This document shows, piece after piece, positions 1-14,107 of a stretch of DNA of 14,107 nucleotides. The notes beneath the pieces were generated by a model, which was given only the letters and a program-made list of their open reading frames with translations, did not search any database and was not told the origin of the DNA. The number at the start of each line of letters is the position of its first letter. The stretch's first letter is position 1. Origin of the DNA: a virus (taxonomy: Duplodnaviria; Heunggongvirae; Uroviricota; Caudoviricetes); IMG/VR virus record IMGVR_UViG_2563366830_000016; one strand, given 5' to 3'. Both the position numbers and the translations under genes were made by a program.

Positions 1-1254
1 ATGCTGGAACAAATGGGCATTGCCGCGAAGCAAGCCTCGTATAAATTAGCGCAACTCTCCAGCCGCGAAAAAAATCGCGTGCTGGAAAAAATCGCCGATG
101 AACTGGAAGCACAAAGCGAAATCATCCTCAACGCTAACGCCCAGGATGTTGCTGACGCGCGAGCCAATGGCCTTAGCGAAGCGATGCTTGACCGTCTGGC
201 ACTGACGCCCGCACGGCTGAAAGGCATTGCCGACGATGTACGTCAGGTGTGCAACCTCGCCGATCCGGTGGGGCAGGTAATCGATGGCGGCGTACTGGAC
301 AGCGGCCTGCGTCTTGAGCGTCGTCGCGTACCGCTGGGGGTTATTGGCGTGATTTATGAAGCGCGCCCGAACGTGACGGTTGATGTCGCTTCGCTGTGCC
401 TGAAAACCGGTAATGCGGTGATCCTGCGCGGTGGCAAAGAAACGTGTCGCACTAACGCTGCAACGGTGGCGGTGATTCAGGACGCCCTGAAATCCTGCGG
501 CTTACCGGCGGGTGCCGTGCAGGCGATTGATAATCCTGACCGTGCGCTGGTCAGTGAAATGCTGCGTATGGATAAATACATCGACATGCTGATCCCGCGT
601 GGTGGCGCTGGTTTGCATAAACTGTGCCGTGAACAGTCGACAATCCCGGTGATCACAGGTGGTATAGGCGTATGCCATATTTACGTTGATGAAAGTGTAG
701 AGATCGCTGAAGCATTAAAAGTGATCGTCAACGCGAAAACTCAGCGTCCGAGCACATGTAATACGGTTGAAACGTTGCTGGTGAATAAAAACATCGCCGA
801 TAGCTTCCTGCCCGCATTAAGCAAACAAATGGCGGAAAGCGGCGTGACATTACACGCAGATGCAGCTGCACTGGCGCAGTTGCAGGCAGGCCCTGCGAAG
901 GTGGTTGCTGTTAAAGCCGAAGAGTATGACGATGAGTTTCTGTCATTAGATTTGAACGTCAAAATCGTCAGCGATCTTGACGATGCCATCGCCCATATTC
1001 GTGAACACGGCACACAACACTCCGATGCGATCCTGACCCGCGATATGCGCAACGCCCAGCGTTTTGTTAACGAAGTGGATTCGTCCGCTGTTTACGTTAA
1101 CGCCTCTACGCGTTTTACCGACGGCGGCCAGTTTGGTCTGGGTGCGGAAGTGGCGGTAAGCACACAAAAACTCCACGCGCGTGGCCCAATGGGGCTGGAA
1201 GCACTGACCACTTACAAGTGGATCGGCATTGGTGATTACACCATTCGTGCGTAA
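1..1254 (+). CDS. proA: Gamma-glutamyl phosphate reductase (glutamate-5-semialdehyde dehydrogenase), complete
   Basis: 417-aa ORF starting at base 1 with ATG; translation recognised as enterobacterial ProA over its whole length (ends ...[12 protein letters not shown]); lies directly upstream of tRNA-Thr, as at the E. coli proA-thrW locus. Confidence 0.95.
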
Positions 1255-1368: not shown

Positions 1369-1444
1369 GCCGATATAGCTCAGTTGGTAGAGCAGCGCAT
1401 TCGTAATGCGAAGGTCGTAGGTTCGACTCCTATTATCGGCACCA
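1369..1444 (+). tRNA. thrW: tRNA-Thr (anticodon CGU)
   Basis: 76-nt sequence GCCGATATAGCTCAGTTGGTAGAGC...GGTTCGACTCCTATTATCGGCACCA with cloverleaf-compatible arms, anticodon loop TTCGTAA (CGT) and encoded 3' CCA; recognised as enterobacterial thrW, a known integration target for P4-like and P22-like elements. Confidence 0.95.
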
Positions 1445-1609: not shown

Positions 1610-2824
1610 GTGAAACTCAATGCCCGTCAAATAGACACAGCCAAGCCAAAAGAGAAGGCTTACAAGCTGGCCGATGGTGGCGGTTTGTATCTCTTGGTAA
1701 AACCTAATGGAGGTAAATACTGGCGACTTAAATATCGTGTAGATGGTAAAGAGAAGCTATTGGCACTAGGTGTGTATCCTGAGGTTACTCTAGCCGATGC
1801 TCGGGCAAAACGTGAAGATGCGAAAAGAGGTATCGCTGGTGGTATCGATCCGATGGAAGCGAAACGAGAGGAAAAGATTGCCCGGGAAACGCAGTTAAAC
1901 AACACCTTCAAAGATATTGCCCTTGAGTGGCACAGCAGCAAATTAAAAAAATGGTCTGCTGGTTATGCTTCAGACATCCTCGAAGCCTTCAACAAAGATG
2001 TGTTCCCTTACATTGGCAAAAAACCAATCGCCGAAATCAAACCACTTGAACTTCTGAATGTGCTGCGGCGCATCGAGGGGCGCGGTGCTACAGAAAAAGC
2101 CAAAAAAGTGAGGCAGCGGTGCGGGGAAGTTTTCCGCTATGCAATAGTCACTGGTCGCGCAGAGTATAACCCTGCACCAGACCTTACTAGCGCGATGCAA
2201 GGCCATGAATCTAATCATTACCCTTTCCTTACAGCTAAAGAATTACCTGATTTTTTCAAGGCATTGTCCAGTTACTCAGGAAGCGCATTGGTTGTTATGG
2301 CGGCTCGTCTACTGATTATCACCGGCTTGCGGACTGGCGAACTACGTGGCGCATTATGGGATGAAATTGATTTCAACAAGGCTATCTGGGAGATACCCGC
2401 TTCACGTATGAAAATGCGGCGGCCTCATATTGTGCCATTGTCTGATCAGGCTCTTTCGCTTATTGGGAAGATTAGAGAAATAACAGGCAATTACCCTCTT
2501 ATGTTTCCCGGGCGCAATGATCCAAGGAAAACAATGAGTGAGGCCAGCATAAACCAAGTGTTTAAGCGCATTGGCTACGCTGGACGTGTAACTGGTCATG
2601 GGTTCCGGCACACTATGAGTACGATTTTGCATGAGCAGGGCTATAACACCGCGTGGATAGAAACGCAGCTCGCTCACGTTGATAAGAACTCAATTCGTGG
2701 CACATACAACCATGCGCAATATCTGGATGGAAGGCGGGAGATGCTTCAATGGTATGCCGACTATATGGATTCTCTCGAGCATGGCGGAAATGTGGTGCAT
2801 ATGGTGTTTGAAAAACACGCATGA
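1610..2824 (+). CDS. Tyrosine-type site-specific integrase, P4-like family (GTG start)
   Basis: 404-aa ORF; N-terminus KLADGGGLYLLVKPNGGKYWRLKYRVDGKEKLLALGVYPEVTLADARAKR is the typical P4-type integrase arm-binding domain; C-terminal HGFRHT and catalytic-Tyr region (YNHAQY) consistent with tyrosine recombinases. GTG at 1610 is the only in-frame start; GGAGG lies 9 nt upstream. Adjacent to the tRNA. Confidence 0.9.
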   Translation: MKLNARQIDTAKPKEKAYKLADGGGLYLLVKPNGGKYWRLKYRVDGKEKLLALGVYPEVTLADARAKREDAKRGIAGGIDPMEAKREEKIARETQLNNTFKDIALEWHSSKLKKWSAGYASDILEAFNKDVFPYIGKKPIAEIKPLELLNVLRRIEGRGATEKAKKVRQRCGEVFRYAIVTGRAEYNPAPDLTSAMQGHESNHYPFLTAKELPDFFKALSSYSGSALVVMAARLLIITGLRTGELRGALWDEIDFNKAIWEIPASRMKMRRPHIVPLSDQALSLIGKIREITGNYPLMFPGRNDPRKTMSEASINQVFKRIGYAGRVTGHGFRHTMSTILHEQGYNTAWIETQLAHVDKNSIRGTYNHAQYLDGRREMLQWYADYMDSLEHGGNVVHMVFEKHA

Positions 2825-2967
2825 AACAACTGGACAAGTATACAGAGGTTTACTAAAGTATAGGGGAGTAGATTGATAAAAACTCACAGAGGATTGCTAT
2901 TTAACAGTTAGCCCTGGAGAAGGGCAATCGCTCTTTTATAAACGAAGGTGTATTGAGCCTTCTACGT

Positions 2968-3032
2968 CGCTGACAAAGCGGAATGTTCTTTAACAGGCTT
3001 TGGCGCTGACAAAGCGCAATTGTTCTTTAAAA
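2968..3032 (+). repeat. Tandem imperfect direct repeats of about 28 bp (CGCTGACAAAGCGGAATGTTCTTTAACA / GCGCTGACAAAGCGCAATTGTTCTTTAAAA) in the int-alpA intergenic region
   Basis: Read directly at 2968-2995 and 3003-3032. Position between int and the regulator gene suggests a protein-binding or regulatory site; function unknown. Confidence 0.4.
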
Positions 3033-3131
3033 CTACTGGATGTCACGCCTAATAGCGTGATCCTGCCGAAATGCAGGGTAGCTCTACCCTTGTGGAGCGA
3101 ACAAACCAAAACAATCTGACTATCTTTTATA

Positions 3132-3166
3132 AAAGACCGCAATATGTTTTTCATATTGTGGTCTTT
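3132..3166 (+). promoter_or_regulatory. Long inverted repeat (15-bp arms, 5-nt centre): AAAGACCGCAATATG-TTTTT-CATATTGTGGTCTTT, upstream of alpA
   Basis: Read directly; one mismatch in 15 bp; no U-tract follows on either strand, so operator-like or RNA-structure rather than an intrinsic terminator. A TTGACG motif follows at 3181-3186. Confidence 0.4.
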
Positions 3167-3252
3167 GGCGTATTCGACATTTGACGCAAATAAAACTCTC
3201 GCCATTCGTTGCAGGAGGGGGTTATTGCGTCATTAGTACAGGATATTAATAA

Positions 3253-3456
3253 ATGGCTAATTACAATTCATTAATTCGTCTCTCTGAAGTTCAAAGGCGA
3301 ACTGGTTATAGCAAAGCATGGATTTATCGTCTTATTAGTCAGGGGAGGTTCCCTAAACAGGTAAAAATTGGAAGTCGGGCAATTGCTTTTGTTGAGTCTG
3401 AAATAGATGAATGGATTGAGAAGTGTATATTAGAATCTAGAGACGAGGTGGCCTGA
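3253..3456 (+). CDS. alpA: AlpA-family phage/island transcriptional regulator (small HTH protein)
   Basis: 67-aa ORF with ...GYSKAWIYRLISQGRFPKQVKIGSRAIAFVESEIDEWIE..., the characteristic AlpA (prophage CP4-57 regulatory protein) pattern; AGGA about 10 nt upstream; same orientation as int, as in P4-like and PICI-type elements. Confidence 0.85.
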   Translation: MANYNSLIRLSEVQRRTGYSKAWIYRLISQGRFPKQVKIGSRAIAFVESEIDEWIEKCILESRDEVA

Positions 3457-3887
3457 TGGAAAAGAAAAACCGCCCATTACAGGCGGCTAATTCAGATATT
3501 CGTGTATCTGATGTTACGCCCCTTACAAAATCCCTTCAAGCACCAAAGCGCACACCGAAAAAGCATCGTGCCAGAGTCTATATGCTGCGTACTGGTATAG
3601 AGGGATGGACAGAAAATGACATTCTTCGCTACTGCCGTCTGTCTTCTGGTCGTAACTATGCAACAGAGTTAGAACGCCAGCTTGGAATCACTCTGGAGCG
3701 TATCGACGAAAAGAATCCTGATGGTATCGGAACACACCTTCGCTACCGTTTCTCCTGCCGTGGTGATGTTCTGAAAGTGATCACTCATATTAACCATCTT
3801 GCGAACATAAATGATCACAACGGACTTTCTCAGCAGGAAATTGCCGACATTCTGAAACTCTACCCGGACGCGTTTAACGCCGCCTAA
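3456..3887 (+). CDS. Hypothetical protein, 143 aa, basic N-terminus; translationally coupled to alpA
   Basis: ATG overlaps the alpA stop (TGATG). N-terminal Lys/Arg-rich segment (PKRTPKKHRARVY) suggests nucleic-acid binding. No family recognised. Confidence 0.6.
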   Translation: MEKKNRPLQAANSDIRVSDVTPLTKSLQAPKRTPKKHRARVYMLRTGIEGWTENDILRYCRLSSGRNYATELERQLGITLERIDEKNPDGIGTHLRYRFSCRGDVLKVITHINHLANINDHNGLSQQEIADILKLYPDAFNAA

Positions 3888-3899
3888 CGGAGACTGAAA

Positions 3900-4733
3900 A
3901 TGAACATCGAAAAAAGCAGATTAATTTCTGAGGCCGCCCCTCATCTGAACGCCTCTCTGGGCACAATTAACGGTAATGAATTTGCCGCAATTGTCCCGGT
4001 TATTCCAGGTCACATCGGTGGGCGTGAAACCAATATTGTTAGCGCAAAAGCGTTACACAAAGCGTTGGGCGTGGGAAAAGACTTCTCTACATGGATCACT
4101 GATCGCATCTCTGAATATGACTTCACCATTGGGCACGATTACTCAGTCCATAAAACAATTTCCCCAAATTTGGGGAAAAGCCCGAATGGCACGGCTTACA
4201 GCAAGATTAAGCAGTCTGGCAGACCCGGCAAAGACTATCTGTTAAGTGTCGGAATGGCGAAAGAGCTGGCAATGATCGAACGCAATGATCAGGGTCGCGC
4301 TATCCGTCGTTATTTCATCCAGTGCGAGGAAGAATTACAGCGTAGCGTGCCTGAAATCGCCGCCCGCTATCGTCGCCAGCTAAAAGCCCGTATCAGTGCC
4401 GCAAACAACTTTAAGCCAATGTGCGATGCGCTGAATATGGCCCGTGCCGAGCAGGGGAAAACGACGCAGCAACACCACTACACAAACGAGAGCAATATGA
4501 TTTCTCGTATCGTTCTTGGAGGGCTAACTGCTAAGCAGTGGGCGCGGATAAATGGCTATTCTGGCGAACCTCGCGACCATATGAACGCAGAACAGCTTGA
4601 GCACCTCTCATATCTCGAAAGCACCAATATCACGTTAATTGATATGGGCATGGAATATGAGCAGCGCAAAGGAGAACTCACCCGCCTGTCGCAACGCTGG
4701 CTCGCCAAGCGTCTGGAGGCGGTCCATGTTTAA
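3900..4733 (+). CDS. Putative phage regulatory/antirepressor-like protein (Rha/KilAC-like region)
   Basis: 277-aa ORF; GGAGA RBS 7 nt upstream; segment DYLLSVGMAKELAMIERNDQGRAIRRYFIQCEEEL resembles the conserved core of phage antirepressor (KilAC/Rha-type) domains. Family assignment is from memory of the motif, not a search. Confidence 0.55.
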   Translation: MNIEKSRLISEAAPHLNASLGTINGNEFAAIVPVIPGHIGGRETNIVSAKALHKALGVGKDFSTWITDRISEYDFTIGHDYSVHKTISPNLGKSPNGTAYSKIKQSGRPGKDYLLSVGMAKELAMIERNDQGRAIRRYFIQCEEELQRSVPEIAARYRRQLKARISAANNFKPMCDALNMARAEQGKTTQQHHYTNESNMISRIVLGGLTAKQWARINGYSGEPRDHMNAEQLEHLSYLESTNITLIDMGMEYEQRKGELTRLSQRWLAKRLEAVHV

Positions 4734-4908
4734 GCCGACAGGAACACCACAACCTCAAAAACGCTACAAAGATGCCCACGGAGCACTCGTTACTGTCGAA
4801 AGCGTGTCTCACAACCGAGTGACGTTTTATCGCGACGGGTATCAATCGCCATGCGTACAACCGCTGGCGCGCTTCATGAAGGAGTTCGCGGAGGTTAACA
4901 AATGCTAA
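4726..4908 (+). CDS. Hypothetical small protein (60 aa)
   Basis: ATG at 4726 preceded by GGAGG (8 nt spacing) and overlapping the stop of the upstream gene; in frame with track ORF 4639-4908. No family recognised. Confidence 0.5.
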   Translation: MFKPTGTPQPQKRYKDAHGALVTVESVSHNRVTFYRDGYQSPCVQPLARFMKEFAEVNKC

Positions 4909-5339
4909 CCGTCCAGAAGAAGATATTTTCACTGACTGCTATGTCGCAAAAATCCAGCAATATGACAGCAAAGTCTGGCATTAATACAGCAGATACAAGC
5001 AAAGCTTATCATTTTATGGTGGTAGGAGCGGATGCCTTAACTATGTCAGAAATTACGGTCGATGGTGTTAGCGTTGAGAAGGTCAGCGGCTGCGCCAGAG
5101 AATTTCTGGTCGTAGATGACCTGTTCTGCTCGCGTAGTGACTCCACAAAAATCTTCGTCCGCACGCGCGACGTTAACGAAATGAGCGCGATGTACTGTGC
5201 CTCTGGTTCTTCCAATAGTGAGTTTTCGGAGTCCATAAAAAAGAGCTTGCCGTTATGCGGCAACACGGTTTATGGTTATAAGGCACCTCATAAAACGGGT
5301 GCCGGGATTAGGACCCCGCAGGCAATCGAGGCGATACAT

Positions 5340-5360
5340 GACGCGCCAGCGTCTTTTTTT
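5340..5360 (+). terminator. Candidate intrinsic terminator / attenuator: GACGC-gcca-GCGTC hairpin followed by T7
   Basis: Read directly: 5-bp GC-rich stem, 4-nt loop, then TTTTTTT at 5354-5360. Short stem, so moderate-to-low confidence. Lies inside the gap with no convincing gene (4909-5524). Confidence 0.35.
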
Positions 5361-5524
5361 GTATCGGCGCACACGCACACCTTATCAATGGTGGGCTGTA
5401 TGGGGCTGACTTCGGTCAGGCTGGTTTCCTTGATTGCCAGTAGTCCTAACCCTGTACAGTCCACCGCCAGCGAGCTTAGGACCTCCGGCGGTGGCTATAA
5501 ACCATCAATCAAGGAGGCTGCCAC

Positions 5525-5719
5525 ATGCTGGCTACTACCCCTACCCAAAAACCGCAATTTATCTGGATTATCGCCGCAGTTCGCCGCGATTGCCCGACAA
5601 TTACCGCCAAAATTCATCATATTGCTGCCGAGTCTGAACGCGATGCTCGCCGTTCTCTGGTGCGCGATCACATCTGCTTTTTTGCTGGTCGTATCCGCAT
5701 GGAGGTGGCACATGATTAA
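5525..5719 (+). CDS. Hypothetical small protein (64 aa); first gene of the coupled operon leading to the primase
   Basis: Strong RBS AAGGAGG at 5511-5517, 7 nt before ATG; host-like codon usage (CTG, CGC, GCC, ATC); its stop overlaps the next gene's start. Confidence 0.7.
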   Translation: MLATTPTQKPQFIWIIAAVRRDCPTITAKIHHIAAESERDARRSLVRDHICFFAGRIRMEVAHD

Positions 5720-5930
5720 AACCTACGATGTGCATATGGATCCCCTCGAACGCACAAGCCAGATCATCACACTGACAGAAGTGATTAACGACATTCTGGT
5801 GAGCAACTCTCCCTCACGAGACGAAAGACTGAAGGCGTTACTCGCGATATTGGATCTCGCCGTTCGTGACGTTCATTTCCTGCTGGAAGGTGGACAAATG
5901 CCATGCAAAACGGGGGCAACCAATGAATAA
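5712..5930 (+). CDS. Hypothetical small protein (72 aa)
   Basis: ATG at 5712 with GGAGGTG 4-10 nt upstream; overlaps the upstream stop; forms the 3' part of track ORF 4902-5930. Confidence 0.6.
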   Translation: MIKTYDVHMDPLERTSQIITLTEVINDILVSNSPSRDERLKALLAILDLAVRDVHFLLEGGQMPCKTGATNE

Positions 5931-6117
5931 CTCAATTAATACCCCTCGCCTTACGTCCGCACTTCAATTAATCGAGCAAGCAGCGGCTGTCCTGGTTGCT
6001 GTCAGTCTTTCGGCTGAAGAAATGGACGCTGCTGATGTCGTGGATGCGATTAAAGCGTGCTCATCTTTGGTTAACGATGCCCGTGCCGAGCTGGTAATTC
6101 TTGGGGGTGAAAAATGA
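5923..6117 (+). CDS. Hypothetical small acidic protein (64 aa)
   Basis: ATG at 5923 (GGGGG 6 nt upstream), overlapping the upstream stop (ATGAATAA); acidic, predicted helical (SAEEMDAADVVDAIKA...). Confidence 0.6.
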   Translation: MNNSINTPRLTSALQLIEQAAAVLVAVSLSAEEMDAADVVDAIKACSSLVNDARAELVILGGEK

Positions 6118-6377
6118 ATATCAACTTAATTTATCGTCATCCGTGTGAGCTGGAAATTGAATCATTGCTGGGGCGCGAAGAGCCATATCCAGACACATTC
6201 ACTCCCGCAGATTGCGCGACTGAACGGCTTACCAGAGCGCGCACAGGTCTGGTTCATGTGATGAATGAGATTGTTCCCTCGGTGGGAGGGGAACAGGCGA
6301 CAGTAATCAATAGCTGGCTACAAAAAGTTACCTCCCTGATAGATATCGGTTTAATCGATGTGGAGAGTGCGAAATGA
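6114..6377 (+). CDS. Hypothetical small acidic protein (87 aa)
   Basis: ATGA start/stop overlap with upstream gene; GGGGGTG RBS. Confidence 0.65.
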   Translation: MNINLIYRHPCELEIESLLGREEPYPDTFTPADCATERLTRARTGLVHVMNEIVPSVGGEQATVINSWLQKVTSLIDIGLIDVESAK

Positions 6378-6595
6378 CCAACATCCAGCTCATTGAAGCG
6401 CAATGTCGCATCGAACAGGTTCAGACTGTTTTAGGGTTCTGGCTTGAAGGGGCCAGCCCCAGCAACAGAGACAAGTTAATGATTGGCGCGGTTATGTCAC
6501 TGCTCAATGGCGTACCAGAAGCTATTCAGGAAGCGGACGAATTGTTGGGCAAATATGAGTTACAGAATCATTCAGGCGAGGCGAAACATGAATAA
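6374..6595 (+). CDS. Hypothetical small protein (73 aa)
   Basis: ATGA overlap with upstream gene; GGAGAG RBS. Confidence 0.65.
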   Translation: MTNIQLIEAQCRIEQVQTVLGFWLEGASPSNRDKLMIGAVMSLLNGVPEAIQEADELLGKYELQNHSGEAKHE

Positions 6596-7190
6596 TTTCT
6601 TAACTTTCCATGCAGAAGCAACGCCTGACGGCGTAAACATCATGTACCGCAGCAACGATGGCATGACAGAACGCGTTGAGACCGTCTCATATATTGATGC
6701 CGTAAATCGTCTGGATGCCGGGGATTATGACGATAAACCAGATGAAGGCATGTTTATACATCTCGCTATTGCCAGTGGCGGCAACCAGGGATATTTCGAT
6801 TACACATCACAGCATCACGTGATTATGTGGCGCTGGCTGATAGCAACAGCATTCATCAATGAAATGAGAAAGGAAAACGGCACTGTCAGCATCATTGATG
6901 ATACTGGCAATCCTTCCGAAGTGGCTGTTTATTCCAACGGCATCGTCGCCATGCCGCTGTATCCAGTAGCAGAGCGCCTCGCTATGGCAAACAACATTGA
7001 GGGCGCGATGATAGAACGTTTTGGCATCGAGTCTGGCACAGAACGCGCCATCATTTTCTACAGAGCCATGATGGATGTGGAACAAGGAGCACTGACTCCA
7101 TTTGGTCGTGAAACGCTTGCTGAACTTCACAACAGCTTTATAGCTGAACTGAATGAAAACGGCATGCCAGCGGAACCAGTGACGCACTGA
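6588..7190 (+). CDS. Hypothetical protein (200 aa)
   Basis: ATG at 6588 overlaps upstream stop (ATGAATAA); GAGG RBS; internal part of track ORF 6483-7190. No family recognised. Confidence 0.7.
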   Translation: MNNFLTFHAEATPDGVNIMYRSNDGMTERVETVSYIDAVNRLDAGDYDDKPDEGMFIHLAIASGGNQGYFDYTSQHHVIMWRWLIATAFINEMRKENGTVSIIDDTGNPSEVAVYSNGIVAMPLYPVAERLAMANNIEGAMIERFGIESGTERAIIFYRAMMDVEQGALTPFGRETLAELHNSFIAELNENGMPAEPVTH

Positions 7191-7200
7191 GGATGGAGCC

Positions 7201-7542
7201 ATGATTACTAAAAATTTCCGACTGAATGCGCTGGCAAATAAGTATGCGTCAGCACTGTATAACCACATTACCTCCACCAGCGGCGGGGACTATTTCATGA
7301 TTGATGCGGACGGAGAGGCCGTCCGTGTGGAAATCGTCAATGGAGTAAAAGGCGTTCGCAGCCTGATCGATAGTTACGCACTGGCAGCCATGAAAGTGTT
7401 CTACCCGCAGTGGGAAACCGTGGGGATCGAGCTTCTTGATCGTTGCGTCACTAAGGACAGATTGACTGACGTCGGGCGTGAGATATGGCAAAGCATGGTT
7501 AATGACATGGGCGCAACTGTAGCGGGAGGTTCTCATGCGTGA
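7201..7542 (+). CDS. Hypothetical protein (113 aa)
   Basis: GAGGATGGAG RBS directly upstream; overlaps downstream gene start. Confidence 0.7.
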   Translation: MITKNFRLNALANKYASALYNHITSTSGGDYFMIDADGEAVRVEIVNGVKGVRSLIDSYALAAMKVFYPQWETVGIELLDRCVTKDRLTDVGREIWQSMVNDMGATVAGGSHA

Positions 7543-7906
7543 AAATGTAGAAATGGCGCTTAGCTCCGCAATCGGAGAGCAGGTGGCAAAGATTGCTGGT
7601 GCTGTGTGGATTCATAACCTTCATTCTACTGGTGAAGAGAAAATGGCAATTCAGACGCCAGAGGGACGCACCATTACTACATCTCTGAAGCCGTCAGATG
7701 TTTGTGATCTGATTTGCGCATTCATGTACCCAGCAATGAGGACTGTCCACGGCGATAAGTGGAAACTTGCGACAACCGCTGAATTTGATATGTGGCTAAA
7801 CAATGATGGCATGCTGACTGATTACGGAATAACCAAGTGGCAGATGCTAGTTAGCCATATCGCAAACGCTATAGACCACGTGGGGTACGGTGATGCGAAA
7901 CATTGA
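7535..7906 (+). CDS. Hypothetical protein (123 aa)
   Basis: GGGAGG RBS 6 nt upstream; 3' end overlaps the primase start by 14-17 nt. Confidence 0.7.
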   Translation: MRENVEMALSSAIGEQVAKIAGAVWIHNLHSTGEEKMAIQTPEGRTITTSLKPSDVCDLICAFMYPAMRTVHGDKWKLATTAEFDMWLNNDGMLTDYGITKWQMLVSHIANAIDHVGYGDAKH

Positions 7907-10649
7907 TCTTATCCGTCAGGTTATCAGTGCGTCTGAAAACAACTGGCCTCATGTGCTGGGCTGCCTGAACATAAATGTCCCTGACTCTCCGCGCCGTCAT
8001 GCTCCCTGCCCTGCATGTGGGGGCAAAGATCGATTCCGGTTCGATGACAACGGGCGCGGTAGCTTCATCTGTAATCAGTGCGGCGCTGGTGATGGGCTGG
8101 ATTTAATTAAACGCGTAAATAACTGCGACACAACAGAGGCGGCGCTTCTTGCCGCTGATGTTCTGGGTATTGATTACCGGACAACGGAAACACCAGAAGC
8201 CACCAGCCAGAAACGGGAACAACTGGAAACCGAGCGCCAGCGACGCGAACAGGAGCGCCTGAAAAGGGCAGAGAAGGACGAACAACAAAGACGGGATACG
8301 TTTTCCCGTCAGTTTGATGACATGCGCAGAAAGGCTGTAAACGGCAAATCTGATTATCTGGTTGCGAAAGGGGTAGGTGATTTTACATTCCCCGTGTTGC
8401 CCGATGGATCTCTGTTGCTGGCGCTGGTGGATAAATCCGGCGCAGTAACAGCAGCACAGACTATTACCTCACATGGTGAAAAAAGACTCCTGACAGGTTC
8501 AGCAAAGCGAGGGGCATATCACGCCATAAACGCACCAGAAACAACACAGAGCATCTTAATCGCAGAAGGGCTGGCAACGGCATTATCTGCCCATTTAATG
8601 CGTCCAGAGGCGCTGACAGTGGCGGCGATTGATGCCGGGAACCTGTTATATGTCGCCCAGGTACTGCGGGATAAATTTCCTTCAGCACAAATCATCATTG
8701 CTGCGGATAACGACCACAGCGAAGGAAGACAAAACACGGGGAGAATAGCAGCAGAAAAAGCAGCTTTATCTGTTTCTGGATGGGTGGCATTACCCCCGAC
8801 AGATCACAAAGCAGACTGGAATGATTACCACCAAAAACACGGCATTAAATGCGCCACAGAAGCGTTCAATAAGTCAATGTACCAACCACAGGGTAATGGC
8901 GTGAAACAGGAGCCACAGACCATTGAGGGAAGCGATTTTAAGGTTATGGATACCGATCCACTGAAACCAAGAATAGAAAGCCGCGAGGATGGTATTTATT
9001 GGGTATCTCCGAGAGCTGACAGCCAGAGTGGAGAAATCATCAATAACGAAAGCTGGTTATGTTCTCCGTTAAGCGTTATCGGTACTGGCAGAGACGATAA
9101 AGACCAGTATCTCATTCTTCGCTGGCTGTCGTTTGGTTCTGAAACGCCGACAACCGCTGCCATTCCACTGGCTGATATTGGTGAACGTGAAGGATGGCGC
9201 ACACTTAAAGCTGGTGGGGTAAATGTCACGACCAAAAGCAGCCTCAGAGCAATACTGGCAGACTGGCTACAACGCAGTGGCTCTCGTGAATTGTGGCGTG
9301 TTGCTCATGCCACTGGCTGGCAATGCGGAGCGTACATCATGCCTGATGGGGAAATCATCGGAACACCTGAAAATCCTGTGCTGTTCAGCGGGAGAAGCTC
9401 AGCCGCAGCCGGATATACCGTCTCAGGGAGCGCGAAAAGCTGGCGTGATAACGTGGCGCGTCTGGCCTTTGGTAACTATTCAATGATGACCGGGATCGGC
9501 GCAGCACTGGCAGCGCCATTGATTGGGCTGGTGGGCGCTGACGGGTTCGGCATTCATTTCTATGAGCAGTCGAGCGCAGGTAAGACCACCACGGCAAACG
9601 TGGCGAGCAGCTTATACGGCAACCCTGATTTACTGCGGCTGACGTGGTACGGAACCGCGCTGGGGCTGGCAAATGAGGCCGCCGCCCACAATGACGGACT
9701 AATGCCGCTTGATGAAGTTGGTCAGGGCGCTGATCCTGTCAGCGTTTCACAGTCTGCCTATGCGTTATTTAACGGTGTAGGGAAACTGCAAGGCGCTAAA
9801 GATGGTGGAAACCGGGATCTAAAACGCTGGCGTACAGTGGCAATCAGCACCGGAGAAATGGATTTAGAAACATTTATCGCTACTTCCGGGCGAAAAACCA
9901 AAGCCGGGCAACTGGTGCGACTGCTGAATATTCCGTTGAGTAAAGCAGTACGCTTTCACGATTACCAGAACGGAAAACAGCACGCAGACGCACTGAAAGA
10001 CGCTTACCAGCATCACCACGGCGCGTCCGGGCGTGAGTGGATTAAATGGCTGGCAGACCACCAGCAACAGGCTATTAAAACCGTTCGTGACTGCGAAAGC
10101 AGATGGAGAAGCCTGATCCCATCCGATTATGGTGAGCAGGTTCACCGTGTAGCCGCGCGATTTGCCATTCTGGAGGCCGCATTGTTGTTAGGCGAGGTTG
10201 TAACAGGCTGGGATGCTCAGACATGCCGTGATGCGATACAGCACAGCTATAACGCATGGTTGCGCGAGTTCGGCACAGGTAACAAAGAGCATCAGCAGAT
10301 TATTGAACAAACGGAGGCATTTCTTAATGCCTATGGGCTTAGCCGTTTTGCACCATTTCCATACAGCCCGGCAGATTTGCCCATCAAAGATTTAGCCGGA
10401 TACCGTCAGCGTGGAGAACATGACGAAAGCCCAATGATTTTCTACACATTCCCGGCCACATTTGAAAAGGAGATCGCATGTGGTTTCAACGCAAAACAGT
10501 TTGCTGAAGTGTTGAAAAAAGCCGGGATGCTAACCCCACCAAACAGCGGTCGTGGATACCAAAGAAAATCACCACGTATTCAGGGACGACAAATAAACGT
10601 TTATGTACTCAATTACCAGCCAGGAGATTATAACTCATCTGAAGAATGA
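7890..10649 (+). CDS. Satellite/phage-type DNA primase-helicase (primase Zn-ribbon + TOPRIM + P-loop NTPase, P4 alpha-like)
   Basis: 919-aa ORF. N-terminal zinc-ribbon CPACGG...FICNQCG typical of primase-helicase Zn-binding domains; charged linker (EQLETERQRREQERLKRAEKDEQQRR); TOPRIM-like acidic motif (IAADNDHSEGRQ); Walker A (SSAGKTTT). Track start is GTG 7890; ATG at 7893 is the alternative. Confidence 0.9.
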   Translation: MMRNIDLIRQVISASENNWPHVLGCLNINVPDSPRRHAPCPACGGKDRFRFDDNGRGSFICNQCGAGDGLDLIKRVNNCDTTEAALLAADVLGIDYRTTETPEATSQKREQLETERQRREQERLKRAEKDEQQRRDTFSRQFDDMRRKAVNGKSDYLVAKGVGDFTFPVLPDGSLLLALVDKSGAVTAAQTITSHGEKRLLTGSAKRGAYHAINAPETTQSILIAEGLATALSAHLMRPEALTVAAIDAGNLLYVAQVLRDKFPSAQIIIAADNDHSEGRQNTGRIAAEKAALSVSGWVALPPTDHKADWNDYHQKHGIKCATEAFNKSMYQPQGNGVKQEPQTIEGSDFKVMDTDPLKPRIESREDGIYWVSPRADSQSGEIINNESWLCSPLSVIGTGRDDKDQYLILRWLSFGSETPTTAAIPLADIGEREGWRTLKAGGVNVTTKSSLRAILADWLQRSGSRELWRVAHATGWQCGAYIMPDGEIIGTPENPVLFSGRSSAAAGYTVSGSAKSWRDNVARLAFGNYSMMTGIGAALAAPLIGLVGADGFGIHFYEQSSAGKTTTANVASSLYGNPDLLRLTWYGTALGLANEAAAHNDGLMPLDEVGQGADPVSVSQSAYALFNGVGKLQGAKDGGNRDLKRWRTVAISTGEMDLETFIATSGRKTKAGQLVRLLNIPLSKAVRFHDYQNGKQHADALKDAYQHHHGASGREWIKWLADHQQQAIKTVRDCESRWRSLIPSDYGEQVHRVAARFAILEAALLLGEVVTGWDAQTCRDAIQHSYNAWLREFGTGNKEHQQIIEQTEAFLNAYGLSRFAPFPYSPADLPIKDLAGYRQRGEHDESPMIFYTFPATFEKEIACGFNAKQFAEVLKKAGMLTPPNSGRGYQRKSPRIQGRQINVYVLNYQPGDYNSSEE

Positions 10650-10672
10650 GCTTCTTCATGTGCGTAGAAAAG

Positions 10673-10787
10673 GTGTTGGTTCAGTTGGTTTAGTTGGTTC
10701 AATTTGTAAAGAGTATTGTTTTATAAGGATTTTATTCTTTTTATTGAACCAACACTGAACCAACAACACGGTATTTTGAACCAACAC
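10673..10787. repeat. Iteron-type origin candidate: 3 direct repeats GTTGGTT(C/T)A (10673-10701), AT-rich spacer, 3 inverted copies TGAACCAAC(A)AC (10745-10787)
   Basis: Read directly. Clustered 9-11 bp repeats in opposing orientation around an AT-rich core, immediately downstream of the primase-helicase gene, is the classic arrangement of a satellite/phage replication origin. Confidence 0.65.
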
Positions 10788-10893
10788 AATGTGACTGAAT
10801 TGATGCGCACAACACCTGGCTGGCATCAGAGAGTGTTTTACGAGACTTTCGTAAAATCCTGTGTACAAGGGCGTGACGTTTTTGAAAGTGAGC

Positions 10894-10912
10894 ACTACGA
10901 AATTTTCGTAGT
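10894..10912. promoter_or_regulatory. 19-bp palindrome ACTACGAAA-T-TTTCGTAGT (operator-like), with an additional TTTCGTA half-site about 45 bp upstream
   Basis: Read directly; 9-bp arms, perfect. Related half-site within ACTTTCGTAAAAT at 10845-10857. Function inferred. Confidence 0.35.
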
Positions 10913-11105
10913 TCAGAAAACAGCCTCTGAGAAGTTGTTATGCCTGTTCAGCAAACCATCCGCATAGCTGATCGCGAATCAAATTACCAATGGAGCCAGA
11001 AGCAAGGGCAGAACTGAAAAGCGCCTGCCGTGAAGAGTAATGCGACACCATAAATATAGTTTTTAGAGTCCATAAAAAACCTGTCAAAACCTGACACACA
11101 GAACG

Positions 11106-11138
11106 ATGCCACCAGCTACTGAGCGGTGGCATTTTTTT
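11106..11138 (+). terminator. Rho-independent terminator (8-bp stem ATGCCACC/GGTGGCAT, 11-nt loop, T7 tract)
   Basis: Read directly: perfect 8-bp GC-rich stem followed by TTTTTTT at 11132-11138. Confidence 0.65.
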
Positions 11139-11171
11139 GTGCTATTTGTTTCATATTTTGCAATTACGATG

Positions 11172-11200
11172 ATGAATATTGCGATTTGTGAAACTATAAT
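11172..11200 (+). promoter_or_regulatory. Candidate sigma70 promoter: consensus -10 TATAAT (11195-11200) with weak -35 ATGAAT at 17-bp spacing
   Basis: Perfect TATAAT hexamer 34 nt upstream of the ATG at 11234 and just downstream of the terminator; the -35 is weak, so low confidence. Confidence 0.35.
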
Positions 11201-11233
11201 AACTGTTGTTTTATACAGTTCTAAGGGGGCGTT

Positions 11234-11395
11234 ATGGCTATTTCAGTAAAGCCGGTATTGATAAGTGAGAAGCAAATGGAAGCGATAAAGAAAATTCAGG
11301 AAGAGCAGCGTAAAAAATCAGGAATTGGAGTAGCGCCAACTCTGCATGAAATTGCACGAGGGTTAATAGATAAGGCGCTGGCAGGCTGTATGTGA
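11234..11395 (+). CDS. Small ORF (53 aa), ribbon-helix-helix-like predicted fold; putative DNA-binding regulator or antitoxin-like protein
   Basis: Below the 60-aa track cutoff; found by reading. AAGGGGG RBS 4-5 nt upstream. MAISVKPVLISEKQMEAIKKIQEEQRKKSGIGVAPTLHEIARGLIDKALAGCM shows a beta-strand/helix/helix pattern typical of Arc/MetJ/CopG-type proteins. Fold assignment is inference. Confidence 0.45.
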   Translation: MAISVKPVLISEKQMEAIKKIQEEQRKKSGIGVAPTLHEIARGLIDKALAGCM

Positions 11396-11411
11396 AAATG
11401 GATGGCATCGC

Positions 11412-11873
11412 ATGGAACTAAAATTTATTGATAACCCTGTGCGATTACAGGCCTTTCTTAACGAGCCAGGCAATACCGAAAATATTGTTGAGCCGGGGCA
11501 CACGTACTACATCAAGCCTGATGCGGTATATCTCGGCATCTACGAAGGATTAGTGCTGGCTGGCGTTCATGAAGTGCGTAACTTCTGGCATAGCGTTGTT
11601 GAATGCCATGCGGTGTACGACCCCGGATTCCGTGGTGAATATGCACTGCAAGGACATCGATTATTCTGCAAATGGCTTCTCGAAAACTCACCATTCCTTA
11701 ACAGCATCACTATGGTTCCTGACACCACGAAATACGGACGGGCAATTATCCGTTTGCTTGGCGCTACCCGTGTTGGTCACCTTGATGATGCTTATATCAG
11801 ATGTGGTAAACCCGTCGGCGTAACGCTTTATCAGTTAACTCGGCAACAATATAAGGAATTCAGCGAATGTTAA
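11412..11873 (+). CDS. Hypothetical protein (153 aa), possibly P22 gp14-like; co-transcribed with downstream ejection-protein-like genes
   Basis: 153-aa ORF; its stop overlaps the next gene's start (ATGTTAA). Position and size match the gene preceding gp7 in P22-like clusters; the homology is recalled, not verified. Confidence 0.6.
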   Translation: MELKFIDNPVRLQAFLNEPGNTENIVEPGHTYYIKPDAVYLGIYEGLVLAGVHEVRNFWHSVVECHAVYDPGFRGEYALQGHRLFCKWLLENSPFLNSITMVPDTTKYGRAIIRLLGATRVGHLDDAYIRCGKPVGVTLYQLTRQQYKEFSEC

Positions 11874-12544
11874 TTACCCATATAGCTCATAAACATCTCA
11901 ATCGTGCCGTATACGAAAAAGGCGGTGATGGTGGTGCCTCTAAAGCTCAGGCGAAGGCCCAGCAGCAGGCAATTGATTTGCAGCGCGAGCAGTGGAATAC
12001 GGTGATGAATAATCTCAAGCCGTATGCAGAAGTCGGATTGCCTGCTTTACAACAACTACAAGGACTGATGACTCTGGAAGGGCAGAATAAAGCCGCGAAT
12101 GATTTCTTTGGTTCTGGTTTATATAAAACACAGGCAGATCAGGCCCGTTATCAGAACCTTGTCTCAGCAGAAACTACCGGGGGGCTTGGCTCAACAGCTA
12201 CCAGTAACCAGTTATCTTCCATTGCGCCCATGCTTTATAACAATTGGCTTAGTGGGCAAATGCAAAATTATGGAAACCTGCTAAATGTCGGGATGAATGC
12301 GGCATCAGGGCAGGCAACGGCAGGGCAAAACTACGCCAATAATACCGGACAACTCTTGCAGGGGCTTGGCGCTATTCGTGCAGGTCAGGCGCAGCAGCCA
12401 TCCAGTCTTGCGCGTGGTATTGGTGGGGCAGCATCAGGCGCTTTAGCGGGTGCGCAACTTGGTTCCGTTGTTCCTGGAATAGGAACTGCGGCCGGCGCTA
12501 TTGGTGGTGGGCTTATTGGTCTTGTTGGGGGGCTTGGATTCTAA
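11867..12544 (+). CDS. P22 gp7-like DNA-transfer (ejection) protein candidate, Gln/Gly/Ala-rich with glycine-zipper hydrophobic C-terminus
   Basis: 225-aa ORF, AAGGA RBS; low-complexity Q/G/A-rich composition and C-terminal GIGTAAGAIGGGLIGLVGGLGF segment. Size and composition match podovirus ejection protein gp7 (about 229 aa). Assignment by composition and synteny only. Confidence 0.55.
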   Translation: MLITHIAHKHLNRAVYEKGGDGGASKAQAKAQQQAIDLQREQWNTVMNNLKPYAEVGLPALQQLQGLMTLEGQNKAANDFFGSGLYKTQADQARYQNLVSAETTGGLGSTATSNQLSSIAPMLYNNWLSGQMQNYGNLLNVGMNAASGQATAGQNYANNTGQLLQGLGAIRAGQAQQPSSLARGIGGAASGALAGAQLGSVVPGIGTAAGAIGGGLIGLVGGLGF

Positions 12545-13863
12545 TGGCGACATGGCAACTTGGCGGGCTGCCTAGCATGGCACCGCAAAATGATAATGCT
12601 CCTCGTTCTTCCGTTCCTCAGCCTGTGCAGTATCAGCAGCAGCCAAACGTAGGTTTAATGGCGCTACAGGGGCTAAGAGGCGTTGCTGAGATTAATCAGC
12701 AGGCGCAAATTTCCCAGCAGCTAAAAGAATATCAGGCACGGTTGGGTAGTGCGGTAGCTAATAATGATCGTGTTGGCGTGCAGAAGTTAATGGCCCAGTA
12801 TCCCCAGTTTATGGCTGATTCTCAAAAACAGATGGGATTCATTGATGCTGAGCAAAATCGGCAGACCGCTGACGCTGCCATGAATCTGCGTCTTGCGTCA
12901 CAAACTGGAGATCCACTGACCATGCAGAAGGCCATTCAGCAGGCAAATCCAGTATTACAGCGATTTGGTCTTCCTGCTGAAGAGGTTTATCAGTCTTGGC
13001 AGAATGACCCACAGGAATTCAACAGAATCACTGACCTCATCCACCTCCATGCTGATCCAAATAGTTACTTTAGTGTTCAAGAGAAGCAGCAAGGGCAGAG
13101 TATTGCACAGCAGAACGCAGATACATCTGCATATAATGCTCAGGTTAATGCGGAGCAGGGTAATCGGCGGCTCGATATGGAGCAGTTCAAAGTCCTATCC
13201 GATAACCAACTACGCACGAGAGAAATGGTTCTGAAAGCACGACTTGGACGTGCTCAAAATGACATCGAGAGAGACAAGCTCAATGCTGAACTGAGCAAGG
13301 TACAGCAGGCGAAAGTGGAGAAGATGAACGATAAAATTAATACTGTTGCAGGTAATATCGACTCCTTGAACTCTGCGCTTGAAGTGGGTCATGAACTGGC
13401 GGGAATTGTAGGGAAACATCCTTCGGCCGTTACCCGTTCGCAGAACTATAACCCCCTGACGCTGGGGTTTGGATTCCTCCCTGATGTAGCAGAAGACACA
13501 CGAAGCCTACGCGCCAAAGCTGATGAATACAACCTAAAGGTTATTCTGCCTAGCCTAAAAGGTACTTTTGGCTCTAACCCAACCGAAGGGGAAAGGGCTG
13601 CCCTTATGCAATCTCAAAATGGCATTAAGTCAGCAACCAGCAATGAGGCATTTTTGCGAGAGTTGAATAAAGCGCAGGACGTAATTATTCGAATGCAGAA
13701 ACGACAGATTGCCGGGCTCGGTATTCCTGTAACCAAATCTAAGGACGAAGAAACTGATACCAAAATGCTGTTGCAGGATCCTTCACTGGTTAAGGATTAT
13801 GTGACCGCACATGGCTATCTGCCGGAAAGTTACTATCAGGCAAAACTTAAGGGATGGCAATGA
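12544..13863 (+). CDS. P22 gp20-like DNA-transfer (ejection) protein candidate, Gln-rich coiled-coil protein
   Basis: 439-aa ORF starting at TAATG overlap with the upstream gene; Q-rich, helical/coiled-coil character; size and position match gp20 (about 470 aa) of P22-like phages. Assignment is inference. Confidence 0.55.
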   Translation: MATWQLGGLPSMAPQNDNAPRSSVPQPVQYQQQPNVGLMALQGLRGVAEINQQAQISQQLKEYQARLGSAVANNDRVGVQKLMAQYPQFMADSQKQMGFIDAEQNRQTADAAMNLRLASQTGDPLTMQKAIQQANPVLQRFGLPAEEVYQSWQNDPQEFNRITDLIHLHADPNSYFSVQEKQQGQSIAQQNADTSAYNAQVNAEQGNRRLDMEQFKVLSDNQLRTREMVLKARLGRAQNDIERDKLNAELSKVQQAKVEKMNDKINTVAGNIDSLNSALEVGHELAGIVGKHPSAVTRSQNYNPLTLGFGFLPDVAEDTRSLRAKADEYNLKVILPSLKGTFGSNPTEGERAALMQSQNGIKSATSNEAFLRELNKAQDVIIRMQKRQIAGLGIPVTKSKDEETDTKMLLQDPSLVKDYVTAHGYLPESYYQAKLKGWQ

Positions 13864-13888
13864 TGGCACAACTGACAGAAAAACAGAA
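13863..13888 (+). pseudogene. 5' stub (about 9 codons, MAQLTEKQN...) of the next gene in the cluster (gp16-like position), truncated by IS insertion
   Basis: ATG at 13863 overlaps the upstream stop (TGATG), continuing the coupling pattern; the reading frame runs into the IS terminal repeat beginning at 13889. Confidence 0.35.
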
Positions 13889-14107
13889 TGAACCGCCCCG
13901 GGAATCCTGGAGACTAAACTTCCTGAGAAAGAGGTAAACAGGATGACTAAAAATACTCGTTTTTCCCCTGAAGTCCGTCAACGGGCAGTCCGTATGGTTC
14001 TGGAAAGTCAGGGCGAATATGACTCACAATGGGCGACAATTTGTTCCATTGCTCCAAAGATTGGCTGTACGCCGGAGACTCTGCGTGTCTGGGTTCGCCA
14101 GCATGAG
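13889..14107 (+). mobile_element. IS3-family insertion sequence, IS629/IS1203-like, left end (partial; continues beyond window)
   Basis: Terminal sequence TGAACCGCCCCGGGAATCCTGGAGACTAAAC followed by orfA encoding [55 protein letters not shown], recognised as the IS629-type OrfA N-terminus (HTH transposase subunit). Identity recalled, not searched. Confidence 0.8.
13943..14107 (+). CDS. IS3-family transposase OrfA (N-terminal 55 codons; truncated by window end)
   Basis: ATG at 13943 with GAGG RBS; translation matches IS629-like OrfA N-terminus; ORF open to the last base of the window. Confidence 0.85.

Follow-up and report, generated by a model that had tools for sequence, protein, structure and literature searches.

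In the analysed stretch of DNA (IMG/VR record IMGVR_UViG_2563366830_000016, 14,107 nt, hereafter the window), a simple transposition of the insertion sequence IS629 (1310 bp) has most probably knocked out, and recently so, an SLT plus gp16-type gene of a phage-inducible chromosomal island (PICI) of the EcCIMP1 type that resides at thrW. Only the first 29 nt of this gene and the left end of the element lie within the window; the properties of the interrupted gene were deduced from its intact homologues. All features are compiled in Table 1.

Table 1. Features of the window, with the evidence on which each assignment is based
Feature	Position	Strand	Evidence
proA	1-1254		
tRNA-Thr (CGU), thrW, island attachment site next to proA	1369..1444	+	ARAGORN, Rfam tRNA
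EcCIMP1-type island, left part, integrase to ejection-protein cassette	1610..13888	+	gene order, Pfam families in relatives, identity to EcCIMP1
DUF2824 protein, cassette head	11412..11873	+	Pfam PF11039, E 1.5e-61
P22 gp7-like ejection protein	11867..12544	+	Pfam PF25688 P22_gp7, E 2.3e-72
P22 gp20-like ejection protein, 439 aa, intact	12544..13863	+	Pfam PF16928 Inj_translocase, E 3.7e-22
5' remnant, 29 nt, of the SLT plus gp16-type gene (intact: 2721 nt, 906 aa)	13860..13888	+	identical to the first 29 nt in relatives L001, L012 and others
Chimeric frame, 25-aa peptide	13860..13937	+	translation; TAA at 13935-13937 inside the IS left end
GAA, predicted 3-bp target site	13886..13888	.	inferred from IS629 duplications and four related 3-bp target-site duplications
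IS629 bases 1-219	13889..14107	+	runs to the window end; 219/219 identity, annotated boundary coincides with 13889
IS629 left terminal inverted repeat, about 25 bp, TGAACCGCCCCGGGAATCCTGGAGA	13889..13913	+	both ends of the complete L010 copy (1310 bp) compared with each other
IS629 orfA, first 55 codons (108 aa complete)	13943..14107	+	HTH_Tnp_1; position equals that of the annotated OrfA

The original prediction had placed an IS629-like terminal repeat at position 13889, and this assignment holds to the base. From there to its end the window is 100% identical (E 4e-111 in the search of phage records) to an IS629 stretch occurring in 13 phage records, two of which, both of Stx-converting phages, carry the depositor annotation “insertion sequence: IS3 family IS629”, and the match is confirmed to lie far beyond chance. 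In LC567824.1 (Stx2a phage Stx2_499), where IS629 interrupts a regulatory gene, the same 219 nt occur with the same terminal repeat and the same position of orfA: the annotated mobile_element of 1310 bp begins at the base aligned to window position 13889, and OrfA begins at element base +55, corresponding to 13943. The portion of orfA contained in the window matches Pfam HTH_Tnp_1 with an E-value of 1.2e-7. IS629 is a member of the IS3 family, with IS1203 and IS3411 as isoforms. Positions 13860-13899 read ATGATGGCACAACTGACAGAAAAACAGAA|TGAACCGCCCC, the first base of the element being the T at 13889, which opens TGAACCGCCCCGGG. The terminal inverted repeat starting with this motif is situated at the element boundary, and the full L010 copy (GCA_964261755.1) has it at either end. 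In the window, the element and the gene that it interrupts point in the same direction.

Alignment of the flank with uninterrupted homologues, which had been proposed as a check on the insertion, places the breakpoint at the same base. Intact relatives align through 13888 and part from the window at 13889, where the IS begins. In case of E. coli A20, the identity amounts to 99.92% over 3999-13888 and the split occurs exactly at 13889, A20 reading ...CAGAA|AGCCTATTCC and the window ...CAGAA|TGAACCGCCC. A megablast search with positions 13000-14107 against 5,426 complete E. coli genomes yielded 72 genomes that match 13000-13888 (query positions 1-889) and then stop, and no record among these 5,426 genomes spans the junction. 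Likewise, the exact pattern of the left junction had no match in genome, viral or metagenome contig collections, and the pattern of the right junction, with a duplication of 0-6 nt allowed, had none in metagenome or genome contig collections. Exact-protein look-ups with the gp20-like protein and with the rarer variant of the gp7-like protein returned, among the 24 blocks with the longest contigs, only long contigs carrying the intact gene. The exact insertion allele is absent from the collections searched.

Due to this uniqueness of the junction, and to the fact that the window breaks off inside a multicopy repeat, 219 nt from its first base, which is frequent for draft contigs, it was considered whether the contig had been misextended during assembly into one of the repeated IS629 copies. 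Such an artefact is extremely unlikely. The break coincides precisely with base 1 of the terminal repeat, which is the signature of transposition, whereas a chimeric join would be expected at an arbitrary internal position; moreover, close relatives show active IS629 in the same island.

Two in-frame ATG codons, at 13860 and 13863, overlap the stop codon of the upstream ORF (12544-13863), a TGA at 13861-13863. As originally described, the ATG at 13863-13865 overlaps this stop, with which it shares the A. Both PGAP and the gene caller of the assembly collection choose the ATG at 13860 (ATGA overlap; MMAQ…), which gives the protein of 906 aa, but translation may instead start at 13863. The IS lies between nt 29 and nt 30 of the 2721-nt gene. 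The statement that about nine codons precede the IS is thus correct for a start at 13863 and becomes ten codons for the start preferred by the gene callers. Of the peptide MAQLTEKQN given in the original prediction, MAQLTEKQ is native, whereas the final N is an artefact of the fusion: the frame from 13863 continues with AAT, to which the gene contributes AA and the IS the T, whereas the ninth codon of the undisrupted gene is AAA, encoding K (...CAGAA|AGCC in the relatives versus ...CAGAA|TGAACC in the window). The native start now gives only the chimeric peptide of 25 residues, and the SLT domain together with the entire gp16-like part is uncoupled from the native start codon. A shortened protein that lacks the N-terminus and begins at Met27 might still be made by read-through or from an outward-directed promoter of the IS.

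In the relatives, the gp20-like gene is followed by a CDS of 906 aa (2721 nt), which in A20 and all the other relatives is annotated as “lytic transglycosylase domain-containing protein”. Homology to gp16 was tested with this intact homologue and not with the 29-nt remnant. The protein carries a Pfam SLT domain at residues 15-117 (E 1.2e-12), in which the SLT motifs ES (34-35), GFAQ (49-52) and YNSG (101-104) were recognized by eye. Furthermore, PF26808 (Phage_P22_gp16) is on record for the 906-aa protein, whereas our own Pfam scan returned SLT only, possibly due to a library lacking PF26808. Among phages, tblastn revealed that Escherichia phage Dewey encodes a homologue over the full length (97% coverage at 46% identity), and further a match of residues 211-899 to the “DNA transfer protein” of epsilon34 (52% identity), and a short conserved block at residues 235-310 shared with gp16 of P22 and ST160 (46% identity). 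A comparison with PDB sequences gave no match at E <= 0.01. Judged by this homology and by the upstream matches to gp7 and gp20, the interrupted gene is a putative ejection protein gene encoding an N-terminal SLT domain and a P22 gp16-type C-terminal part, in agreement with the gp16-like position to which the original prediction had assigned the gene following gp20. Similar to P22 gp16, the DNA transfer protein of epsilon34 and T7 gp16, the intact homologue is preceded by gp7- and gp20-like genes, and with T7 gp16 it shares the N-terminal lytic transglycosylase domain. The gp16-type proteins of these podoviruses are internal ejection proteins that are packaged in virions, delivered into the host and needed for infectivity. 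In contrast to them, the gene is here located on a satellite island devoid of head and tail genes, and just 29 nt of it are kept in the window.

The gene is carried by 76 of the 5,426 complete E. coli genomes, with an identity of at least 99% in 74 of the 76, and the start region is conserved in the relatives. Among the 60 listed records, the gene forms a single uninterrupted piece over the full query in 57 (two at 2720 and 2707 bp versus 2721 bp); listed exceptions that still carry the gene are M15, in which it is interrupted, and TW10690, which contains the 3' half only. The gene is thus generally well kept, and its IS allele represents a rare event confined to one lineage.

The genomic context of the interrupted gene is that of a satellite. 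The gene order of the island is integrase, AlpA, AntA, DUF4222, Ash, small ORFs, a Toprim/DUF927 primase, a 53-aa ORF and the ejection-protein cassette, and the relatives continue with the 906-aa gene, a 232-aa gene, variable accessory genes and perC. The DUF2824 gene at the head of the cassette takes the place that gene 14 has in the gene order of P22. In the window and its relatives, integrase, AlpA and primase are present, capsid, tail and lysis genes are absent, and integration has occurred at a tRNA site; the order proA, tRNA-Thr, integrase is also annotated in E. coli M15, DLI.6n and MP1. E. coli M15, N25 and DLI.6n match the island together with proA at approximately 100% identity, and a Shigella origin need not be assumed. 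The gp20 region had no match in the phage collection by megablast, which indicates that none of the deposited phages contains a close copy of the cassette. EcCIMP1 of E. coli MP1 occupies the same proA/tRNA-Thr site, shows the same order from integrase to ejection-protein cassette, and shares 98.2-98.3% nucleotide identity with the window. Differences are given by the 906-aa gene, which is intact in MP1 and cut at codon 10 in the window, and by ash, which is intact (342 aa) in the window and a pseudogene in MP1. EcCIMP1 excises and circularises only upon induction of the helper podovirus Kapi1, which specifically transduces it, and EcCIMP1 adds to superinfection immunity (PMC11773190). Mobilisation by a helper has thus been demonstrated for EcCIMP1 itself. 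On the grounds of gene content, gene order and identity, the locus is classified as an EcCIMP1-type PICI at thrW that is otherwise intact in the window.

The original prediction had further proposed that the insertion dates the decay of the cluster. A decaying remnant of a P22-like prophage, with the IS as one step of its decay, would be in line with the homology of the cassette to P22 virion genes and the absence of head, tail and lysis genes, and the region was initially taken for a defective prophage by the authors describing EcCIMP1, too (PMC11773190). This reading is nevertheless highly improbable. The order int-alpA-antA-ash-primase-cassette-perC recurs unchanged, 1984 blocks of the assembly collection contain an identical gp20-like protein, and the gp16-type gene is not only conserved in the 74 genomes mentioned above but nearly always intact. 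Given the widespread occurrence of the identical gp20-like protein, the cassette is a module that has been conserved within a functional mobile element, and excision, circularisation and transduction by Kapi1 are on record for the 98%-identical EcCIMP1 (PMC11773190). The other island genes in the window are undamaged and identical to those of intact relatives. The dating of a decay is unsupported, since nothing else in the island portion of the window differs from the intact copies.

The recency of the insertion, which was part of the same prediction, is by comparison well borne out, and the junction is missing from the complete genomes as described above. Two relatives carrying the intact gene, L012 (GCA_052850115.1) and L013 (ERZ27260301), are 99.992% identical to the window over 12,022 bp (1867-13888), and the sole difference is one intergenic base at 10691. 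A single SNP over this distance from intact copies implies that the insertion is younger than the split from L012 and L013 and hence recent. At commonly quoted short-term rates for E. coli, one difference per 12 kb corresponds, as a rough inference, to a time span between decades and, at most, a few centuries. The insertion would accordingly be very recent and belong to one lineage of IS629-rich E. coli.

Elements of the IS3 family transpose by a copy-out/paste-in mechanism. In the proposed course of events, a full 1310-bp copy of IS629, a length that includes orfB (DDE/rve), a programmed -1 frameshift and a right inverted repeat, would have inserted, its right end reading …CCCGGGGCGGTTCA. IS629 is described to generate target duplications of 3-4 bp (PMC3271280). 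Four other IS629 copies were identified in EcCIMP1-type islands, all of them 1310 bp in length, with both ends visible, with clean 3-bp target-site duplications and without loss of flanking sequence; three of the four are in the opposite orientation. Two interrupt the 906-aa gene, namely in L010 (duplication AAG) and in E. coli M15 (NZ_CP185789.1; duplication CTG), the two sites being about nt 357 and about nt 1250 of the gene, compared to nt 29/30 in the window. A second copy in M15 (duplication TTC) is located near a 73-aa gene, at a site close to the 73-aa ORF of the window (6374-6595), and the copy in DLI.6n (NZ_CP103974.1; duplication ATC) resides in the primase gene. As these four related insertions are simple and flanked by 3-bp duplications, a duplication of GAA is predicted for the window as well. 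Beyond the right end of the IS, a GAA (or AGAA) duplicate would then be expected, with AGCCTATTCCCGTCATCTCG coming next; the duplicate would in this case be succeeded by AGCCTATTCCCGTCATCTCGATG together with the 2.69 kb that are left of the gene. The 906-aa gene would thereby be knocked out, and a polar effect on the 232-aa gene, which in the relatives lies downstream in the same direction, is probable.

As the window does not reach the far end of the IS and the junction patterns remained without match, there is room for a different interpretation, in which IS629 marks a rearrangement, i.e., an IS-adjacent deletion or a recombination between two copies, and the right side of the island is missing or relocated. 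In O157:H7, matching duplications are kept at only 21 of 47 IS629 sites (PMC3271280), so that IS-associated rearrangements are common. The closest complete genomes each show 18-33 matches to the IS629-containing query and thus offer many partners for recombination, and the 3' half of the gene retained alone in TW10690 indicates that partial losses occur. However, all four other IS629 insertions of the island family are simple, with intact 3-bp duplications and preserved flanks, and one SNP in 12 kb relative to intact islands leaves little time for secondary events. A rearrangement is therefore considered unlikely, and simple transposition is the preferred explanation.

Insertion of IS629 into phage-related DNA is a usual observation. 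Phage-related mobile elements are the target of 62% of the IS629 copies in O157:H7 (PMC3271280), and the target in the window is likewise a phage-related mobile element; unlike other IS629 insertions in prophage-like elements, the site in the window was found in none of the complete E. coli genomes and collections searched. In M15, the 906-aa gene is additionally interrupted by IS4 with its usual long duplication (12-bp overlap). Considering the window, L010 and both the IS629 and the IS4 of M15, the SLT-gp16 gene has acquired four independent IS insertions among the few genomes examined. It is tempting to speculate that this gene is a preferred or selected target of inactivation in EcCIMP1-type satellites, but we consider this quite doubtful. 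Selection might act against a costly ejection protein of the satellite, or against interference with the helper phage or with superinfection. However, no gene of the island offers a larger target than the 906-aa gene, and the hint of selection is further weakened by a sample that is both small and biased. If interference applied, losing the SLT-gp16 protein would change the relationship between satellite and helper.

IS629, the EcCIMP1 family and gp16-type proteins with a T7-gp16-like transglycosylase are all of known kinds, and the insertion is an ordinary event, minor in itself, as IS629 in prophage-like elements is routine for IS629-rich E. coli. What is gained is, first, the identification of the interrupted gene as that of a 906-aa SLT plus gp16-type ejection protein and, second, the assignment of the locus to a published family of mobilisable satellites, of which it represents an otherwise intact member and not a decaying P22 prophage. 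The strain would constitute a natural knockout of one satellite ejection protein and thus bears on the question whether an own gp16 is needed for transfer or for superinfection immunity. Lacking its own gp16-type protein, the satellite would depend on that of the helper phage. Less ordinary is the observation that the satellite family carries a full set of ejection proteins. It is conceivable, although quite doubtful, that a PICI with an own ejection set (gp14/7/20/16-like) re-equips helper virions for the delivery of DNA.

Insertion of IS elements into the EcCIMP1-type island family in IS629-rich strains is repeated and independent. Besides the IS629 copy of the window, which starts at 13889 within the gene of a 906-aa ejection protein, insertions were found in the islands of E. 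coli M15, E. coli DLI.6n and the relative GCA_964261755.1, and every one of these is simple and flanked by target-site duplications. In M15, the 906-aa gene holds one of the two IS629 copies plus the IS4 element. An IS903B copy furthermore splits crl a few kb upstream of proA in this close relative (4037-5504), a further sign of heavy IS activity in this lineage.

The intact homologue of the interrupted gene in the close relative GCA_052850115.1 (L012) encodes a P22-group gp16-type protein with an SLT lytic transglycosylase domain at the N-terminus, in which the ES, GFAQ, and YNSG motifs are present. Homologues of this protein occur full-length in phage Dewey and partially in Sf101.

Features of the window and of related islands.
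Feature	Sequence	Coordinates	Strand	Remark
'ash family protein' ORF	window	4902-5930		downstream of AntA antirepressor gene
isrK	window	5283-5359	+	Rfam, gathering-level, 63 bits
C4 antisense RNA	window	5384-5471	+	Rfam, gathering-level, 80 bits
Iteron-like array	window	10673-10787		directly 3' of primase gene
Terminator-like inverted repeat	window	11097-11141		GC-containing repeat CACAGAACGATGCCACC … GGTGGCATTTTTTTGTG, then T-run
Intact homologue of IS-cut gene	L012	11994-14714		P22-group gp16-type ejection protein
2 IS629 + 1 IS4	E. coli M15 (L014)	14442-15749, 23527-24834, 24994-26419		
IS629	E. coli DLI.6n (L017)	16124-17433		in primase gene
IS629	GCA_964261755.1 (L010)	12404-13713		in 906-aa gene

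The chimeric 25-codon ORF, in which the native gene start is fused to the left end of IS629, terminates with a TAA (13935-13937) 5 nt ahead of the orfA start codon (ATG at 13943), and AAGAGG is situated shortly upstream (region 13929-13945). Due to this arrangement it is tempting to speculate that transposase synthesis is translationally coupled to read-through from the cassette operon of the island.

The iteron-like array consists of three direct-order copies of GTTGGTTCA (10675-10707) and, opposite to these, three copies of TGAACCAAC (10744-10787), and represents a candidate replication origin. The sole difference between the window and its intact relatives GCA_052850115.1 and ERZ27260301, at 10691 (T in the window, C in the relatives), lies within the middle direct copy. 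The inverted repeat with its T-run, a putative terminator, is located in the 585-nt non-coding gap between the primase gene and the ORF of 53 aa with which the ejection-protein cassette begins.

Within the 'ash family protein' ORF, the isrK and C4 antisense RNA matches adjoin each other, and this pair in the phage-inducible chromosomal island of the window resembles a P1/P7/P4-style antisense immunity RNA.

Among the island relatives (L002-L011), modules are exchanged at the primase region and 3' of the 232-aa gene. Two primase types occur, one of 918 aa (Toprim/DUF927) versus one of 783 aa (Toprim/DUF5906) with two additional ORFs. A variable slot ahead of perC, occupied by Abi_2, Peptidase_M78/ImmA or PRiA4_ORF3 genes, has the appearance of a defence or accessory hotspot.
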